Shown one piece after another: positions 2,892 through 42,722 of a stretch of 64,000 nt of DNA (the first letter of the stretch is position 1; each line of letters opens with the position of its first letter). Under the pieces are notes generated by a model. That model did not search any database. It saw only the letters and a list, made by a program, of their open reading frames with translations, and was not told where the DNA came from. Source of the DNA: Escherichia coli (GTDB taxonomy: Bacteria; Pseudomonadota; Gammaproteobacteria; Enterobacterales; Enterobacteriaceae); the NCBI RefSeq assembly GCF_030013595.1, contig NZ_CP122768.1. One strand, written 5' to 3'. The position numbers and the translations under genes are program-made.

Positions 2892-3837
2892 ACGCCCACT
2901 GGTTATAAACACACAGCTTGCGATGAAGATTGGCTTAAATGAAGCCATTGTGTTGCAGCAGTTGCATTACTGGTTGAGAGATACCAATTCCGGCATGGAA
3001 TGTGATGGTGTTCGCTGGATTTACAACACAACGGAACAATGGCTGGAACAGTTCCCATTCTGGCCAGAGTCAACGTTAAAGCGCGCGTTTGCAAGTCTGA
3101 AAACGCTGGGGCTTTTGCGTTGTGAAAAGCTCAATAAATCAAAGCGCGATATGACCAATTTCTACACGATCAACTATGGGAGCGAGCTTTTAGATGGTGG
3201 CAAATTGAACGAATCCATCGGTTCAAAATGCGCCGCTCCATCAGGTCAAAATGACACGATGGAAGAGGTCAAAATGAAACGCTCCATTGGTTCAAAACGA
3301 CCCAATGTCATCGGGTCAAAATGGCCTGATGATCTTACAGAGAATACAACAGAGATTACTACAGAGAATAAAAACACTTTTCGTCCGGAAGCTTCGCAAC
3401 CGGACCCGCAGACCGCTGAACAGGATTTTTTAACCCGGAACCCCGACGCGGTTGTGTTTAGTGCGAAAAAACGCCAGTGGGGTAGCAGGGAGGATTTGGC
3501 GTGTGCGCAGTGGATTTGGGGGCGGATCGTGAACCTTTACGAACAGGCTGCCAGCGACGATGGAGAGATCATGCGACCAAAAGAGCCTAACTGGACAGCC
3601 TGGGCCAATGACGTGCGCACAATGCGGATGCTGGATGGCAGAAGCCACAGACAAATTTGCGAAATGTTTGGTCGGGTACAGCGAGATCCATTCTGGGTAA
3701 AAAACATCATGAGCCCGTCAAAACTCCGCGAAAAATGGGACGAACTGGTCATCCGCTTGGGACGTTCACCTGTACAGCGTTGTGTGAATCATATTTCTGA
3801 ACCGGATACAGAAATTCCGCCTGGTTTCAGGGGATAA
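2872..3837 (+). CDS. Replication initiation protein, lambda O-like
   Basis: Position after cro/cII-like genes; contains iteron-like DNA repeats internally (translated as repeated IGSK motifs), as in lambda O/ori; start at MSLLFAERP. Confidence 0.65.
   Translation: MSLLFAERPLVINTQLAMKIGLNEAIVLQQLHYWLRDTNSGMECDGVRWIYNTTEQWLEQFPFWPESTLKRAFASLKTLGLLRCEKLNKSKRDMTNFYTINYGSELLDGGKLNESIGSKCAAPSGQNDTMEEVKMKRSIGSKRPNVIGSKWPDDLTENTTEITTENKNTFRPEASQPDPQTAEQDFLTRNPDAVVFSAKKRQWGSREDLACAQWIWGRIVNLYEQAASDDGEIMRPKEPNWTAWANDVRTMRMLDGRSHRQICEMFGRVQRDPFWVKNIMSPSKLREKWDELVIRLGRSPVQRCVNHISEPDTEIPPGFRG
3219..3324 (+). repeat. Putative replication origin iterons (about five copies of GGTCAAAATG-like repeat)
   Basis: cGGTTCAAAATG 3219..3230, GGTCAAAATG 3244..3253 and 3267..3276, GGTTCAAAACG 3289..3299, GGGTCAAAATGG 3314..3324, inside the O-like gene. 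Confidence 0.6.
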
Positions 3838-3877
3838 GTGTTGATTTCAGGTCATGAGGTAATTTTAAGGAGGACTT

Positions 3878-4273
3878 GTGGCAAAAGTTTTTACACAGGA
3901 AGAGCGGGAAAAAATTAAAGAGCAGGTGGTCGAACTTGTGCGCCAGAGCGGTCGCGAGACATTACGACAGTTGGAAGCTAAAACAGGTGCGACAAGATAT
4001 CTGATGAGCATTCTTGCCAGAGAGCTGGTTGCCAGTGGTTATGTATACAACTCCGGCTACGGGTTATTCCCGTCTGAACAGGCACGAAAGGACTGGCAAA
4101 ATGCCCGCAAAAAACTCTCTAGGGCGAAGGTGAAGAAACCCGCTGTGGTTGATCCGGACCTTATCTGGTCACTACCTGATGGAGAAATACGTCGCTACGA
4201 CAGTCGTCTAAACATAATCTGTCGCGAGTGCCGGAAGAGCGAAGTTATGCAGCGCATATTGTCGTTTTATTAG
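3878..4273 (+). CDS. Hypothetical 131-aa protein at the position where a helicase loader (P/DnaC) would be expected
   Basis: GTG start 4 nt after TAAGGAGG; no Walker motif seen; function unknown. Confidence 0.5.
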   Translation: MAKVFTQEEREKIKEQVVELVRQSGRETLRQLEAKTGATRYLMSILARELVASGYVYNSGYGLFPSEQARKDWQNARKKLSRAKVKKPAVVDPDLIWSLPDGEIRRYDSRLNIICRECRKSEVMQRILSFY

Positions 4274-33897: not shown

Positions 33898-36800
33898 ATG
33901 GGTAAAGGCAGCAGTAAGGGGCATACCCCGCGCGAAGCGAAGGACAACCTGAAATCCACGCAGCTGCTGAGTGTGATTGATGCCATCAGCGAAGGGCCGG
34001 TTGAAGGTCCGGTGGATGGATTAAAAAGCGTGCTGCTGAACAGTACGCCAGTGCTGGACAGTGAGGGGAATACCAACATCTCCGGCGTCACGGTGGTGTT
34101 CCGGGCCGGTGAGCAGGAGCAGACACCGCCGGAGGGATTTGAATCCTCCGGCTCCGAGACGGTGCTGGGTACGGAAGTGAAATACGACACGCCGATCACC
34201 CGGACCATCACGTCGGCAAACATTGACCGACTGCGTTTTACCTTCGGCGTGCAGGCACTGGTGGAAACCACCTCAAAGGGGGACAGGAATCCGTCGGAAG
34301 TCCGCCTGCTGGTTCAGATACAGCGTAACGGTGGCTGGGTGACGGAAAAAGACATCACCATTAAGGGCAAAACCACCTCGCAGTATCTGGCCTCGGTGGT
34401 GGTGGGTAACCTGCCGCCGCGCCCGTTCACTATACGGATGCGCAGGATGACGCCGGACAGCACCACAGACCAGCTGCAGAACAAAACGCTCTGGTCGTCA
34501 TACACCGAAATCATCGATGTGAAACAGTGCTACCCGAACACGGCACTGGTCGGCGTGCAGGTGGACTCGGAGCAGTTCGGCAGCCAGCAGGTGAGCCGTA
34601 ATTATCATCTGCGCGGGCGTATTCTGCAGGTGCCGTCGAACTATAACCCGCAGACGCGGCAATACAGCGGTATCTGGGACGGAACGTTTAAGCCAGCATA
34701 CAGCAACAACATGGCCTGGTGTCTGTGGGATATGCTGACCCATCCACGCTACGGCATGGGGAAACGTCTTGGTGCGGCGGATGTGGACAAATGGGCGCTG
34801 TATGTCATCGGCCAGTACTGCGACCAGTCGGTGCCGGACGGCTTTGGCGGCACGGAGCCGCGCATCGCCTGTAATGCGTACCTGACCACACAGCGCAAGG
34901 CCTGGGATGTGCTCAGTGATTTCTGCTCGGCGATGCGCTGTATGCCGGTATGGAACGGGCAGACGCTGACGTTCGTGCAGGACCGACCGTCGGATAAGGT
35001 GTGGACCTATAACCGCAGTAATGTGGTGATGCCGGATGATGGCGCACCATTCCGCTACAGCTTCAGCGCCCTGAAAGACCGCCATAATGCCGTTGAGGTG
35101 AACTGGATTGACCCGGATAACGGCCAGGAGACGGCGACAGAGCTTGTGGAGGACTCGCAGGCCATTGCCCGTTACGGTCGTAACGTCACGAAGATGGATG
35201 CGTTTGGCTGTACCAGCCGGGGGCAGGCGCACCGCGCCGGGCTGTGGCTGATTAAAACAGAACTGCTGGAAACGCAGACCGTGGACTTCAGCGTGGGTGC
35301 CGAAGGGCTTCGCCATGTACCGGGCGATGTCATTGAAATCTGCGATGATGACTATGCCGGTATCAGCACCGGCGGGCGCGTGCTGGCGGTGAACAGCCAG
35401 ACCCGGACGCTGACGCTCGACCGTGAAATCACGCTGCCATCCTCCGGCACCACGCTGATAAGCCTGGTTGACGGAAGTGGCAATCCGGTCAGCGTGGAGG
35501 TCCAGTCCGTCACCGACGGCGTGAAGGTGAAAGTGAGCCGGGTTCCTGACGGCGTTGCCGAGTACAGCGTGTGGGGGCTGAAGCTGCCGACGCTGCGCCA
35601 GCGCCTGTTCCGCTGTGTGAGTATCCGTGAGAACGACGACGGTACGTATGCCATCACTGCAGTGCAGCATGTACCGGAGAAAGAAGCCATCGTGGATAAC
35701 GGGGCGCACTTTGACGGTAACCAGAGCGGCACGGTGAATGGTGTCACGCCGCCAGCAGTGCAGCATCTGACCGCAGAAGTCACCGCAGACAGCGGGGAAT
35801 ATCGGGTGCTGGCCCGCTGGGACACGCCGAAGGTGGTGAAGGGCGTGAGCTTCCTGCTTCGCCTGACCGTGGCAGCGGATGACGGCAGTGAGCGGCTGGT
35901 CAGCACGGCCCGGACGACGGAAACCACTTACCGCTTCACACAACTGGCTCTGGGGAACTACAGGCTGACAGTCCGGGCAGTAAATGCGTGGGGGCAGCAG
36001 GGCGATCCGGCGTCGGTATCGTTCCGGATTGCCGCACCGGCAGCGCCGTCGCGGATTGAGCTGACGCCGGGCTATTTTCAGATAACCGCCACGCCGCATC
36101 TTGCGGTTTATGATCCGACGGTACAGTTTGAGTTCTGGTTCTCGGAAAAGCGGATTGCGGATATCAGGCAGGTTGAAACCACAGCACGCTATCTTGGCAC
36201 GGCGCTGTACTGGATAGCCGCCAGTATCAATATCAAACCGGGCCATAATTATTATTTTTACGTTCGCAGTGTGAACACCGTTGGCAAATCGGCATTCGTG
36301 GAGGCTGTTGGTCAGCCGAGTGATGACGCATCCGGCTATCTGGATTTTTTCAAAGGCGAGATAGGGAAAACCCATCTGGCTCAGGAGCTGTGGACGCAGA
36401 TTGATAACGGTCAGCTTGCGCCTGACCTGGCTGAAATCAGGACGTCCATTACGGATGTCAGCAATGAAATCACACAGACCGTCAATAAGAAACTGGAAGA
36501 CCAGAGTGCAGCAATTCAGCAGATACAGCAGGTTCAGGTTGATACAAGTAATAACCTGAACAGCATGTGGGCTGTGAAGTTGCAGCAGATGCAGGACGGA
36601 CGCCTTTATATTGCGGGTATCGGTGCCGGTATTGAGAACACCCCCGACGGCATGCAGAGTCAGGTGCTGCTGGCGGCAGACAGGATTGCGATGATTAATC
36701 CTGCAAATGGCAACACAAAACCGATGTTTGTTGGTCAGGGTGATCAGATATTCATGAATGAAGTGTTCCTGAAATATCTGACGGCTCCCACCATTACCAG

Positions 36801-37377
36801 CGGCGGTAATCCTCCTGCATTTTCCCTGACACCGGACGGAAAGCTGACCGCTAAAAATGCAGATATCAGTGGCAGTGTGAATGCGAACGCCGGGACGCTC
36901 AACAACGTTACGATAAATGAAAACTGTCAGATTAAAGGGAAACTGTCAGCCAACCAGATTGAAGGCGATATTGTCAAAACAGTGGGTAAGGCTTTCCCGC
37001 GGGACTCCCGGGCACCGGAGCGGTGGCCATCAGGGACCATTACCGTCAGGATTTATGACGATCAGCCGTTTGACCGGCAGATTGTTATTCCGGCGGTGGC
37101 ATTCAGCGGTGCTAAACATGAGAGAGAGCATACTGATATTTACTCCTCATGCCGCCTGATAGTGAAGAAAAATGGTGCTGAAATTTATAACCGTACCGCG
37201 CTGGATAATACGCTGATTTACAGTGGTGTTATTGATATGCCAGCTGGTCACGGCCACATGACGCTGGAGTTTTCGGTGTCAGCATGGCTGGTAAATGACT
37301 GGTATCCCACAGCAAGTATCAGCGATTTGCTGGTTGTGGTGATGAAGAAAGCCACCGCAGGCATCAGTATCAGCTGA
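33898..37377 (+). CDS. J: Central tail fibre / host specificity protein J
   Basis: 1159 aa [54 protein letters not shown]..., lambda gpJ-like. Confidence 0.95.
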
Positions 37378-37396
37378 ATTTTATAACCCATATACG

Positions 37397-37420
37397 GGCG
37401 CCAGAAATGGCGCCTTTTTT
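37397..37420 (+). terminator. Rho-independent terminator between J and lom
   Basis: GGCGCC-AGAAAT-GGCGCC followed by TTTTTT. Confidence 0.6.
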
Positions 37421-37444
37421 ATTGCAGAAAAGCGAGAGGTAATT

Positions 37445-38044
37445 ATGCGTAAAGTTTGTGCAGCCATTTTGTCCACAGCCATCTGTCTGGCCGTATCCGG
37501 TGCGCCTGCATGGGCGTCTGAGCAGCAGGCCACACTGAGCGCAGGGTATCTTCATGCCCGTACGAACGCTCCCGGCAGCGATAATCTGAACGGGATTAAC
37601 GTGAAATACCGTTATGAGTTTACGGACACGCTGGGGCTGATTACGTCATTCAGTTATGCCAACGCTGAAGATGAGCAAAAAACGCATTACAGCGATACCC
37701 GCTGGCATGAAGATTCCGTGCGTAACCGCTGGTTCAGCGTAATGGCGGGGCCGTCTGTGCGCGTGAATGAATGGTTCAGCGTGTATGCGATGGCGGGTGT
37801 GGCTTACAGCCGTGTGTCGACTTTCTTCGGGGATTATCTCCGCGTAACTGACAACAAGGGGAAAACGCACGATGTGCTGACCGGAAGTGATGACGGTCGC
37901 CACAGCAACACGTCTCTGGCGTGGGGGGCTGGCGTGCAGTTTAACCCGACCGAATCCGTGGCCATTGATATTGCTTATGAAGGCTCCGGCAGTGGTGACT
38001 GGCGCACTGACGGTTTCATCGTGGGTGTCGGTTATAAATTCTGA
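37445..38044 (+). CDS. lom: Outer membrane protein Lom (Ail/Lom family)
   Basis: 199 aa [38 protein letters not shown]..., signal peptide plus beta-barrel. Confidence 0.9.
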
Positions 38045-38070
38045 TTAGCCAGGTAACACAGTGTTATGAC

Positions 38071-38097
38071 AGCCCGTCGGTTCAGGCGGGCTTTTTT
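38071..38097 (+). terminator. Rho-independent terminator after lom
   Basis: AGCCCG-TCGGTTCAG-GCGGGCT followed by TTTTTTG. Confidence 0.6.
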
Positions 38098-38102
38098 GTG
38101 GG

Positions 38103-41100
38103 GTGAATATGGCAGTAAAGATTTCAGGTGTACTGAAAGACGGCACAGGAAAACCGGTACAGAACTGCACAATCCAGCTGAAAGCAAAACGTAACAGCAC
38201 CACGGTGGTGGTGAACACGCTGGCCTCAGAAAATCCGGATGAAGCCGGGCGTTACAGCATGGACGTTGAGTACGGTCAGTACAGCGTTATTCTGTTGGTG
38301 GAAGGATTCCCGCCGTCACATGCCGGGACCATCACCGTGTATGAAGACTCCCGACCCGGTACGCTGAATGATTTTCTCGGTGCCATGACGGAGGATGATG
38401 CCCGGCCAGAGGCACTGCGCCGTTTTGAGCTGATGGTGGAAGAGGTGGCGCGTAACGCGTCCGCGGTGGCACAGAACACGGCAGCCGCGAAGAAGTCAGC
38501 CGGCGATGCCGGCACATCAGCCCGTGAGGCGGCAACCCATGCGACTGATGCTGCAGGCTCAGCACGCGCAGCCAGCACGTCAGCCGGACAGGCCGCGTCG
38601 TCGGCTCAGTCAGCGTCTTCCAGCGCAGGAACGGCATCAACAAAGGCCAGTGAAGCATCGAAAAGTGCTGCTGCTGCAGAGTCCTCAAAAAGCGCGGCAG
38701 CTACCAGTGCCAGTGCCGCGAAAACGTCAGAAACGAATGCCGCAGCGTCACAACAATCAGCAGCCACTTCTGCATCCACCGCGACCACGAAAGCGTCAGA
38801 AGCTGCCACCTCAGCCCGGGATGCGGCGGCCTCAAAAGAGGCAGCGAAATCATCAGAAACGAACGCATCCTCGAGCGCCAGTAGCGCAACTTCCTCGGCA
38901 ACGGCGGCAGGAAATTCCGCGAAGGCGGCAAAAACGTCCGAGACGAACGCTAAGTCTTCTGAGACGGCAGCGGGACAGAGCGCCTCAGCTGCGGCAGGCT
39001 CAAAAACAGCGGCTGCATCATCTGCCAGCGCCGCGTCAACAAGTGCCGGGCAGGCCTCAGCCAGTGCCACCGCCGCCGGAAAATCGGCAGAAAGCGCCGC
39101 ATCATCCGCTTCAACAGCCACAACGAAGGCTGGCGAAGCCACTGAACAGGCCAGCGCAGCAGCGAGTTCTGCTTCCGCAGCGAAGACATCCGAAACGAAC
39201 GCGAAAGCGTCGGAAACCAGCGCAGAATCCTCAAAAACGGCTGCCGCATCGTCAGCCAGTTCGGCGGCGTCATCGGCATCATCGGCGTCTGCTTCAAAAG
39301 ATGAGGCGACCAGACAGGCGTCAGCAGCGAAGGGCAGCGCCACGACAGCATCCACGAAGGCGACAGAGGCAGCTGGTAGTGCGACAGCGGCAGCTCAGAG
39401 CAAAAGTACGTCGGAATCTGCAGCAACGCGTGCCGAGACAGCAGCAAAACGGGCAGAGGATATTGCATCTGCCGTGGCGCTTGAGGATGCGAGCACGACG
39501 AAAAAGGGGATAGTACAGCTCAGCAGTGCGACCAACAGTACGTCTGAAACGCTGGCGGCAACGCCAAAGGCAGTAAAATCAGCCTATGACAATGCAGAGA
39601 AACGTCTGCAGAAAGACCAGAACGGCGCTGATATACCCGATAAGGGACGCTTCCTGAACAACATTAACGCGGTCAGTAAAACAGACTTTGCTGATAAGCG
39701 TGGTATGCGTTATGTGCGGGTTAACGCTCCTGCAGGTGCAACATCTGGAAAATATTACCCTGTTGTTGTTATGCGTTCTGCTGGCTCAGTAAGCGAACTG
39801 GCATCAAGGGTCATTATCACCACGGCAACGCGAACCGCAGGCGATCCGATGAATAACTGCGAGTTTAACGGATTTGTTATGCCTGGTGGCTGGACTGACA
39901 GGGGGCGTTATGCTTATGGAATGTTCTGGCAATATCAAAACAATGAACGAGCCATCCACTCAATAATGATGAGTAATAAGGGCGATGATTTGCGCTCTGT
40001 GTTCTATGTTGATGGCGCTGCTTTCCCTGTTTTTGCGTTTATCGAAGATGGCCTGTCAATATCCGCACCTGGTGCTGATCTCGTTGTTAATGATACGACC
40101 TATAAGTTTGGGGCAACAAATCCAGCGACTGAATGTATCGCGGCGGACGTTATCCTTGATTTTAAGAGTGGGCGTGGTTTTTATGAGTCTCATTCGTTAA
40201 TCGTTAACGATAATTTGTCGTGCAAAAAACTTTTTGCCACAGACGAAATTGTAGCGCGTGGTGGTAATCAGATTCGAATGATAGGTGGGGAGTATGGTGC
40301 ATTATGGCGTAATGATGGCGCTAAAACTTACCTGCTGCTTACCAATCAAGGTGATGTTTATGGTGGCTGGAATACATTAAGACCGTTTGCTATTGATAAC
40401 GCAACCGGCGAACTGGTTATTGGAACCAAACTGTCCGCAAGTCTGAACGGTAATGCATTAACAGCAACAAAGCTGCAAACGCCAAGACGGGTTTCTGGTG
40501 TTGAGTTTGATGGTTCCAGAGATATTACTTTAACCGCCGCGCATGTGGCTGCTTTTGCCAGAAGGGCAACGGATACATATGCCGATGCGGATGGTGGCGT
40601 TCCCTGGAATGCCGAATCAGGTGCTTACAATGTCACCCGCTCTGGCGACAGCTATATTCTGGTTAACTTCTATACCGGAGTCGGAAGTTGCCGGACCCTG
40701 CAGATGAAGGCGCATTACAGAAATGGTGGTCTGTTCTACCGTTCTTCAAGAGACGGTTATGGTTTTGAGGAAGACTGGGCAGAAGTTTATACCTCGAAAA
40801 ATCTTCCACCAGAAAGCTACCCAGTCGGCGCACCAATCCCGTGGCCATCAGATACCGTTCCGTCTGGTTATGCCCTGATGCAGGGGCAGACTTTTGACAA
40901 ATCTGCTTACCCGAAACTTGCAGCCGCTTATCCGTCAGGCGTGATCCCTGATATGCGTGGCTGGACGATTAAGGGCAAACCTGCCAGTGGTCGGGCCGTA
41001 TTGTCTCAGGAACAGGACGGCATTAAATCGCATACCCACAGCGCCAGCGCATCCAGTACGGATTTGGGGACGAAAACCACATCGTCGTTTGATTACGGCA

Positions 41101-41459
41101 CTAAATCCACGAATAACACCGGGGCGCATACCCATAGTGTTAGCGGTACGGCTGCTTCAGCCGGTGCACATACCCATTCGATGACATTTGTTTCAGGTGG
41201 TTCCAGTGGTGCTCCGGGAAGTGGAGCATCTGATTATTCTAAATACAGTGTTAACACTTCTTCTGCAGGCGCTCATACGCACTCTGTATCGGGTACTGCT
41301 GCAAGCGCAGGTGCACACGCACATACTGTGGGTATTGGTGCTCATACGCACTCCGTTGCGATTGGTTCACATGGACACACCATCACCGTTAACGCTGCTG
41401 GTAACGCGGAAAACACCGTCAAAAACATCGCATTTAACTATATTGTGAGGCTTGCATAA
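38103..41459 (+). CDS. stf: Side tail fibre protein Stf (long form, 1118 aa)
   Basis: Conserved N-terminus, long Ala/Ser-rich repeat region, C-terminal tip with repeated GAHTHS motifs; followed by tfa. Confidence 0.9.
38650..39450 (+). repeat. Degenerate tandem coding repeats inside stf (unit encodes A-K-T/S-S-E-T-N-A)
   Basis: Repeated gcgaaaacgtcagaaacgaatgc-like units; produces long spurious ORFs in other frames and on the opposite strand. Confidence 0.6.
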
Positions 41460-42034
41460 TGGCATTCAGAATGAGTGAACAACCACGGACCATAAAAATT
41501 TATAATCTGCTGGCCGGAACTAATGAATTTATTGGTGAAGGTGATGCATATATTCCGCCTCATACAGGTCTGCCAGCAAACAGTACCGATATTGCACCGC
41601 CAGATATTCCGGCTGGCTTCGTGGCTGTTTTCAACAGTGATGAGTCATCGTGGCATCTCGTTGAAGATCATCGGGGTAAAATGGTTTATGACGTGGCTTC
41701 CGGCGACGCGTTATTTATTTCTGAACTCGGTCCGTTACCGGAAAATGTTACCTGGTTATCGCCGGAAGGGGAGTTTCAGAAGTGGAACGGTACAGTCTGG
41801 GTGAAGGATACGGAAGCAGAAAAACTGTTCCGGATCCGGGAGGCGGAAGAAACAAAAAACAGCCTGATGCAGGTAGCCAGTGAGCATATAGCGCCACTTC
41901 AGGATGCTGTAGATCTGGAAATCGCAACGGAGGAAGAAACCTCATTGCTGGAAGCCTGGAAAAAGTATCGGGTGTTGCTGAACCGTGTTGATACATCAAC
42001 TGCACAGGATATTGAATGGCCAGCACTGCCGTAG
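41459..42034 (+). CDS. tfa: Tail fibre assembly protein Tfa
   Basis: 191 aa [42 protein letters not shown]...; start overlaps stf stop. Confidence 0.85.
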
Positions 42035-42131
42035 GGTAAAACATATAAATTCTATAATTAGATGTATCTTTCCATTTACGGCAAGGAAGGGGGCTTGGAA
42101 GACGTAAAGCATCTCACACCGAGATTATTTT

Positions 42132-42722
42132 TTATATGTCAGGTGTCTGAAGTTTTGCTTTGGCTCTTAAAATGGTTTGCCGCGAGGTTTTGAATTCCCG
42201 GGCAATGGCACTTATACTTACACCTGACTTAATTCGTTCGAATACCACCTGTTTCTGTTCTTCATTTAACACAGGTGGTCGACCAAAACGTTTCCCTGCG
42301 CCGCGGGCTCTTACTATCCCGGAATGAGTGCGTTCAAGTAAAAGGTCTCGTTCAAATTCAGCGACTGCTGAAATTACGTGCATCATCATTTTTCCTGTTG
42401 GACTGGTCAGGTCAATGCCCCCCAATGCTAAGCAATGCACTCTGATACCTGTTTCGGTCAGTTGTTCCACTGTTTTCCTGATATCCATTGCATTACAACC
42501 AAGGCGATCCAGTTTTGTCACAATCAATTGATCACCACATTTCAGGCGAGCAAGCAACCGGTTAAAACCAGGACGCTCACTGGTTGCTGCTGAGCCGCTA
42601 ATGTGTTCTTCGATTATTTGCTGAGGTTTGATTTTAAAACCTGCACTTTCGATTTCCCGGCGTTGATTTTCGGTGGTCTGATCCAGCGTTGATATCCGAC
42701 AGTAAGCAAAAATTCGAGACAT
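42132..42722 (-). CDS. pinQ: Serine recombinase / DNA invertase PinQ-like
   Basis: 196 aa [29 protein letters not shown]...; catalytic Ser region plus C-terminal HTH. Confidence 0.85.

Follow-up and report, generated by a model that had tools for sequence, protein, structure and literature searches.

The stretch between positions 38650 and 39450 of the window (the 64,000 nucleotides of Escherichia coli DNA from contig NZ_CP122768.1 analysed here, to which all coordinates refer) raises a simple question: is the repetitive, Ala/Ser-rich sequence found there an array of DNA repeats, a low-complexity segment of protein or an ordered structural element, and are the long open reading frames (ORFs) that overlap it, out of frame or on the opposite strand, real genes? 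The original prediction had described degenerate repeats encoding AKTSETNA-like units, a low-complexity shaft and spurious ORFs, an observation and an interpretation that hold in part. Our preferred answer, to which we assign a probability of about 0.9, is that the Ala/Ser-rich sequence codes for a three-stranded coiled coil forming the proximal rod of a lambda/Rac-type side tail fibre.

Positions 33898-42722 of the window belong to a lambdoid prophage, of which they form the tail-fibre end. There, ORFs and Pfam matches revealed the J-lom-stf-tfa order of the lambdoid tail module, the same as in lambda and Rac: J (1159 aa), lom (Pfam Ail_Lom), stf and tfa, the last encoding a tail fibre assembly chaperone (41459..42034, + strand; Pfam Caudo_TAP, E=1e-43), with a Pin-type serine invertase gene beyond them on the opposite strand. 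The phage_tail_N, gp34-like, collar and gp37-like tip domains that it encodes identify the long ORF as the lambda-type stf (side tail fibre) gene of a lambdoid prophage. Its N-terminal tail-attachment (collar) domain (PfN/phage_tail_N; 38109..38411, + strand) matches the full 134-position profile of Pfam PF08400 (E=9e-72) as well as the lambda Stf structures PDB 9e7m/9mgh, which comprise residues 1-94 of that protein (E=2e-51). In the distal fibre, a T4 gp34-like trimerisation domain (40095..40394, + strand; Pfam PF21446, E=3e-27; PDB 4uxe/5nxf) precedes a T4 gp37-like receptor-binding tip made of a collar and a His-rich needle (40812..41456, + strand; PDB 2xgf, E=2e-88, residues 904-1118; Pfam Collar and Phage_fiber), and the phage Mu fibre gpS (PDB 5yvq) matches Stf residues 444-523. 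Both the phage_tail_N match and the J-lom-stf-tfa context therefore bear out the claim that the region belongs to the shaft of a side tail fibre. The program-made ORF list had begun stf at GTG 38103 (1118 aa), a codon that falls within the ribosome-binding site. The true start is ATG 38109: the lom terminator and a GGGGTGA ribosome-binding site lie ahead of it, and both the stf homologs and the lambda Stf chain (PDB 9e7m) begin with MAVKISG. From this ATG, stf (38109..41459, + strand) encodes 1116 aa. Of 5426 complete E. coli genomes, 4929 carry DNA similar to stf, at up to 15 places per genome.

Examination of the encoded protein revealed 50 uninterrupted A-x-x-S-A-x-x heptads in the proximal rod (38445..39494, + strand; Stf residues 115-464). 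The array is longer than had been proposed, extending ~200 nt further upstream and 45 nt further downstream than 38650-39450, and the coil itself probably starts at ~38412, with 14 residues of more conventional heptads. Its register is unbroken, with Ala at position a in 46, Ser at position d in 37 and Ala at position e in 35 of the 50 heptads. Ala, Ser and Thr account for 37%, 25% and 12% of the residues, or 73% of the rod taken together, and large hydrophobic residues are almost absent. Residue identity reached 0.38-0.43 at lags of 7, 14 and so on up to 49, versus ~0.18 at the remaining lags, and the Fourier power of Ala, which never exceeded 9.2 in 2000 shuffles, rose to 17.3 for period 7 and 41.6 for period 3.5. 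The periodicity of the rod is thus far beyond chance.

The copies of AKTSETN are what had first drawn attention to this region. AK[TSA]SET[NSA] occurs six times in the rod: the first AKTSETN heptad lies at 38718..38738 and belongs to a DNA family that we call D3, while further copies or near-copies are found at 38844-38864, 38928-38948, 38949-38969, 39180-39200 and 39201-39221, all on the + strand. The final A of the AKTSETNA unit simply opens the heptad that follows. The periodicity behind the original prediction is thus real and strong, but the unit has seven residues rather than eight and it repeats at the level of the protein rather than the DNA. Beyond the heptad no higher-order super-repeat of the rod was significant (best z 3.0 versus a 95% shuffle threshold of 3.3); a weak similarity of five heptads was seen at lag 16. 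A module of 15-17 heptads, considered as the source of length classes of 17, 34 and 50 heptads and of indels of 105 and 112 residues, was rejected on the same figures.

Rod length was compared across 80 IMG/VR loci, which were retrieved with the N-terminal domain as the only query to keep the sample unbiased with respect to rod length. A heptad HMM—trained on the heptads of the window's own rod and then used to score the homologs—assigned a single continuous register to the window and to 79 of the 80 related loci, and rods in these loci ranged from ~126 to 346 residues. The number of heptads is 50 here, 35 in lambda and 34 in Gifsy-2, it varies from ~18 to 50 among close homologs, and it covers ~0-50 among representatives of clusters at 50% identity, with the 50 heptads of the window forming the longest class. 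Counted in heptads, the predicted variation in copy number between strains is therefore real. In the distant PfN-bearing fibres of Yersinia, Plesiomonas and Seuratvirus phages the Ala-heptad coils are shorter, and in some fibres most of the coil is replaced by a collagen G-X-Y helix.

The length differences themselves were measured, independently of any alignment, as the distance between two non-repeat anchors, DDARPE and GIV[QK]LSS; gap placement in a periodic sequence favours in-register gaps, and only anchor-to-anchor differences are unbiased. Relative to the window these differences were -14, -28, -105 (at three different junctions) and -112 residues, with -3, +3 and -220 as exceptions. 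The comparison of stf lengths among strains that had been suggested as a check thus gave multiples of seven in 6 of 9 changes (P(>=6/9)=4.8e-4 under random in-frame lengths), and the three exceptions, all 3 or 4 modulo 7, correspond to the tolerated breaks in coiled coils known as ‘stutters’ and ‘stammers’. Natural indels therefore preserve the heptad register, either in steps of 7n or through a stutter or stammer of 3 or 4 residues. Two loci with an anchor distance of 415 (L027 and L056), an apparent gain of 44 residues, were set aside, since in both of them the post-coil motif is duplicated (44 aa) outside the rod and the coil is unchanged. This conserved motif (28 residues; 39495..39590, + strand), which is duplicated in some homologs, is also a frequent mosaic junction. 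Counted in nucleotides of stf, its homology to other loci breaks where the coil starts (nt 350), within the coil (nt 842, for ~20 loci, and nt 922-935) and just after it (nt ~1482-1487, in many loci); the rod is a mosaic boundary and a recombination zone, and the description of the region as recombination-prone proved correct.

At the indel junctions the exact homology amounts to just 2-8 nt, and one of them, that of the 336-nt change in locus L071, lies in a 26-nt D3 direct repeat pair that is 88% identical. Classical unequal crossing-over via long junction homology was rejected on these grounds. Because the junction homologies are short, most of the 7-residue quantisation is more plausibly explained by selection for the helical register than by a slippage-prone DNA repeat. 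In our preferred explanation heptad number differs among prophages via in-frame deletions, insertions and mosaic recombination within the rod, and the surviving variants nearly always keep the register, with changes of seven-residue multiples or, rarely, a 3- or 4-residue discontinuity.

The original prediction carried a different implicit model, namely a true, VNTR-like tandem array of AKTSETNA-coding DNA units that changes by replication slippage. Unit-number polymorphism between strains, as expected of such arrays, does exist here, and the 26-nt, AK(T/S)SETN-coding D3 family recurs with 77-88% identity at intervals divisible by 21 nt, the deletion in L071 having its junction exactly in two of its copies. 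There is also a micro-repeat of 9 nt x 2.4, CGGCATCAT, identified by Tandem Repeats Finder at 39265..39286 (+ strand) and encoding 14 residues, at which one homolog (P0046) is 3 residues (9 nt) shorter. This micro-repeat is, however, the only true DNA tandem repeat of the region. Apart from it, Tandem Repeats Finder reported no array across the flagged region at a minimum score of 30, so the tandem-repeat search proposed as a test, for which the absence of computed periodicity had been named as the refutation, came out negative. When 21-nt units were compared in register their mean nucleotide identity was 43%, versus 36% in out-of-register controls, and since the units are only ~43% identical in DNA this program is blind to the heptad array; a generic repeat finder recovered only short families of 60-88% identity, many of them spaced by multiples of 21 nt. 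Moreover, most indel junctions share 2-6 nt of exact homology, the identities of 25-29/60 in their neighbourhoods are the background for this composition, and the higher-order period is not significant. Head-to-tail units alike in nucleotides were thus found neither by Tandem Repeats Finder nor by the identity comparison, and we regard slippage in a DNA array as very unlikely. In our preferred explanation only the heptad pattern is under constraint, and the units have drifted to their present nucleotide identity for this reason. More generally, a perfect periodicity at the protein level can go unseen by DNA repeat finders.

A disordered, low-complexity Ala/Ser/Thr linker, whose periodicity would be left over from ancient duplications, is the other explanation to be weighed. 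Such a linker would suit the extreme composition of the rod, with its few large hydrophobic residues, and the pTM of its AlphaFold2 model is just 0.25. Against it, the register is intact over 50 heptads and has been kept through indels in independent lineages, which drift would not do. The AlphaFold2 model itself, covering Stf residues 96-472 (377 residues modelled, 73 homologs aligned), is helical at 6-191 and 201-371, with a pLDDT mostly between 70 and 90 (mean 75.5). As a monomer it forms an antiparallel hairpin, which is certainly an artefact of modelling a single chain and not the native arrangement. In a study of O157:H7 prophage fibre proteins that start with a PfN domain, the PCoil fragment homologous to the rod was alpha-helical by CD and trimeric by SEC-MALLS in vitro (Ghosh et al. 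2012, PMC3368898), and lambda fibres appear as rods by cryo-ET (PMC12617516). Taken together these observations make a disordered linker highly improbable. The shaft was recognised correctly, but it is built as a coiled coil with strictly phased heptads and not as an unstructured, low-complexity chain.

How would such a coiled coil be organised? A sequence search of the PDB returned no solved structure over the rod, the deposited part of lambda Stf being residues 1-94 only. By analogy with the homologous fragment studied by SEC-MALLS (PMC3368898) and with the lambda fibre studied by cryo-EM—where a 2025 cryo-EM/ET paper on Ur-lambda assigns gpStf 102-393 to the proximal coiled coil of a trimeric fibre (PMC12617516)—the rod is probably a parallel trimer. 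Positions a, d and e, with their small residues, would make up its core, while b, c, f and g are polar. Position a is mostly Ala (small and apolar) and position d mostly Ser (polar), which is atypical for coiled coils, and the unusual core of the Ala/Ser coil was likewise remarked on for the O157:H7 fibres (PMC3368898). At a rise of ~0.15 nm per residue the rod would be ~52 nm long here, versus ~36 nm in lambda, and it would keep the N-terminal domain, which would clamp the fibre to the tail tip, apart from the distal gp34/gp37-like receptor-binding part. Both a loose Ala-X-X-Ala/Ser-X-X-Ser heptad and PCoil lengths that differ by multiples of seven had been reported previously (Ghosh et al. 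2012, PMC3368898), so the heptad pattern and the quantised lengths are already known, and the feature is an ordinary one for this gene family.

We also analysed the long ORFs that overlap the rod. The spurious ORFs of 249 and 335 aa listed in the original prediction both exist exactly as described: an Arg/Gln/Pro-rich one of 335 aa in the +1 frame relative to stf (38506..39513, + strand) and an Ala/Asp/Val/Phe-rich one of 249 aa in the antisense frame that shares the wobble positions of stf (38606..39355, - strand). A further antisense ORF encodes 172 aa (38950..39468, - strand). Across the 1050 nt of the rod, the three forward frames contain 0, 0 and 11 stop codons and the three reverse frames 28, 2 and 2. 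Residues whose codons carry T at the second position (Val, Leu, Ile, Phe and Met) occur just 5 times in the 350 positions of the rod, and the +1 frame is free of stops because a stop there needs precisely this nearly absent T; the same scarcity makes stops rare in two antisense frames. When the same protein was encoded by synonymous codon reshuffles, the +1 frame was open over 349 aa every time, and the antisense frame of the 249-aa ORF, in which the observed open run is 262 aa, had a mean open run of 267 aa (5-95%: 170-349). Since the reshuffles reproduce the open frames, the extra ORFs are by-products of composition. None of the three ORFs had a Pfam match and no promoter-like site was found in the region; they are not genes.

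Could one of them, most plausibly the 249-aa antisense ORF, be a real gene nonetheless? All 42 homologs of the same length keep its frame open (262-295 aa), and 69% of the codon differences among them are synonymous in this frame. Both properties, however, follow automatically from the wobble positions that it shares with stf, as the reshuffles illustrate, and because these positions coincide, synonymous and non-synonymous counts are uninformative for this ORF. The predicted product, which lacks a Pfam family and a promoter-like site, would be a low-complexity Ala/Asp/Val/Phe polymer altered in length by every heptad indel. Among the same 42 homologs the first, second and third codon positions of the stf frame had diversities of 0.027, 0.024 and 0.140, and in the frame of the 335-aa ORF just 12% of the codon differences were synonymous. 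Neither the reshuffles, the Pfam search nor the promoter scan gave any sign that these frames are more open or better conserved than the stf frame requires, and a real gene overlapping the rod is extremely unlikely. Two practical points follow for annotation: the ORFs of 170-335 aa that arise out of frame or antisense over Ala/Ser-rich tail fibre rods should not be annotated as genes, and an antisense ORF with shared wobble positions mimics purifying selection (here 69% synonymous differences), defeating the usual test. For fibre engineering, the coiled-coil rod is a natural site for length steps of seven residues and for swaps of distal modules. These points on annotation, repeat detection and fibre engineering contain no new biology.

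A more speculative idea is that heptad number is an adaptive setting of the ‘reach’ of the fibre, with classes of ~17, 34 and 50 heptads (roughly 18, 35 and 52 nm) matched to the depth of the host O-antigen or capsule and retuned quickly by register-preserving recombination among the up to 15 stf copies of a genome; we consider this rather doubtful.

The alanine-zipper of Braun's lipoprotein Lpp-56 and T4 fibritin, trimeric coiled coils whose cores are made of small residues, resemble the proposed rod in being parallel, three-stranded, heptad-phased helical rods that serve as spacers or fibres. Their cores consist mostly of Leu, Ile, Val and Ala, and the fibritin segments are interrupted, whereas the core of the rod studied here is almost exclusively Ala/Ser/Ala and continues without interruption for 50 heptads. 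In EPclA and EPclB of E. coli O157:H7 the PCoil also follows the PfN domain and is also made of Ala/Ser heptads, but it spans ~110-145 residues and leads into a collagen triple helix and PfC (PMC3368898), while the rod of the window spans 350 residues and leads into gp34/gp37-type modules. One locus from an O157:H7 Stx2a phage (L089) encodes a PfN-coil-collagen fibre with the same type of heptad as the window. Lambda Stf shares with the window a homologous N-terminal collar domain (PDB 9e7m, E=2e-51), the A-x-x-S-A-x-x heptads, the post-coil motif and a gp37-like tip. It differs in having 35 heptads instead of 50, which makes the rod of the window longer by 105 residues (~16 nm), and in its distal half, which in the window is ~340 aa longer and includes the T4 gp34-like trimerisation domain.

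The most similar system is StfR of the K-12 Rac prophage, which is identical to the Stf of the window at 1075 of 1116 residues (96%) and has an identical 50-heptad rod, 337 of whose 350 residues match. As in the window, tfa and pin genes (tfaR and pinR) lie downstream of it. In contrast, the prophage of the window retains intact J and lom genes upstream, which in K-12 Rac are deleted or interrupted by IS5, and the two fibre proteins show a 4-residue difference near the tip.

Across the 80 IMG/VR loci fetched with the N-terminal domain of stf, the side tail fibre gene, the register of the Ala/Ser coiled-coil rod was broken in only one, L069. The stf of this locus lacks 660 nt, equivalent to 38534-39193 in the window and corresponding to 31 heptads plus 3 residues, which leaves a rod of only about 18 heptads and makes L069 a natural 'stutter' variant. 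Another length change adjoins the rod but lies outside the rod itself: the motif immediately following the coil, TTKKG[IV]VQLSS...PKAVK, is duplicated in the IMG/VR loci L027 and L056, and likewise in H75/H76, from E. coli O104:H4 and LR-48, adding 44 aa (132 nt), a number of residues that is not a multiple of 7.

The rod can also be replaced. In two fibres bearing the N-terminal tail-attachment domain (PfN), those of L087 (Escherichia phage PhiR12_4, 4001-5563) and L089 (Stx2a_WGPS6, 3001-4224), long collagen-like G-X-Y repeats stand in place of most of the Ala/Ser coiled coil. Here one type of trimeric rod has been exchanged for another behind a common attachment domain, an exchange already known from the EPcl proteins.

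When complete E. coli genomes were analysed, the N-terminal 1.5 kb of stf matched 16,138 places in 4929 of the 5426 genomes; a single genome has as many as 15 of them, and 211 are on plasmids. These matches form a vast reservoir of partners for recombination between prophages. Just downstream of tfa the window carries a Pin-type serine invertase gene (42132-42722, minus strand; Resolvase and HTH_7 domains), the same position that pinR occupies in the Rac prophage of K-12.

Regarding the start of stf, the stretch 38060-38111 holds the lom terminator (GCCCG...CGGGC and then T6) and, immediately after it, GGGGTGA and the ATG at 38109, an arrangement implying that the mechanically listed start, GTG 38103, is two codons too early. 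Finally, a 625-aa ORF lies antisense within gene J (34498-36375, minus strand), longer than any of the phantom ORFs in stf. Its sole Pfam match, to a zinc ribbon, was below threshold (18.6 bits versus a cut-off of 27), and it is probably a further phantom ORF, compositional or wobble-sharing in origin.
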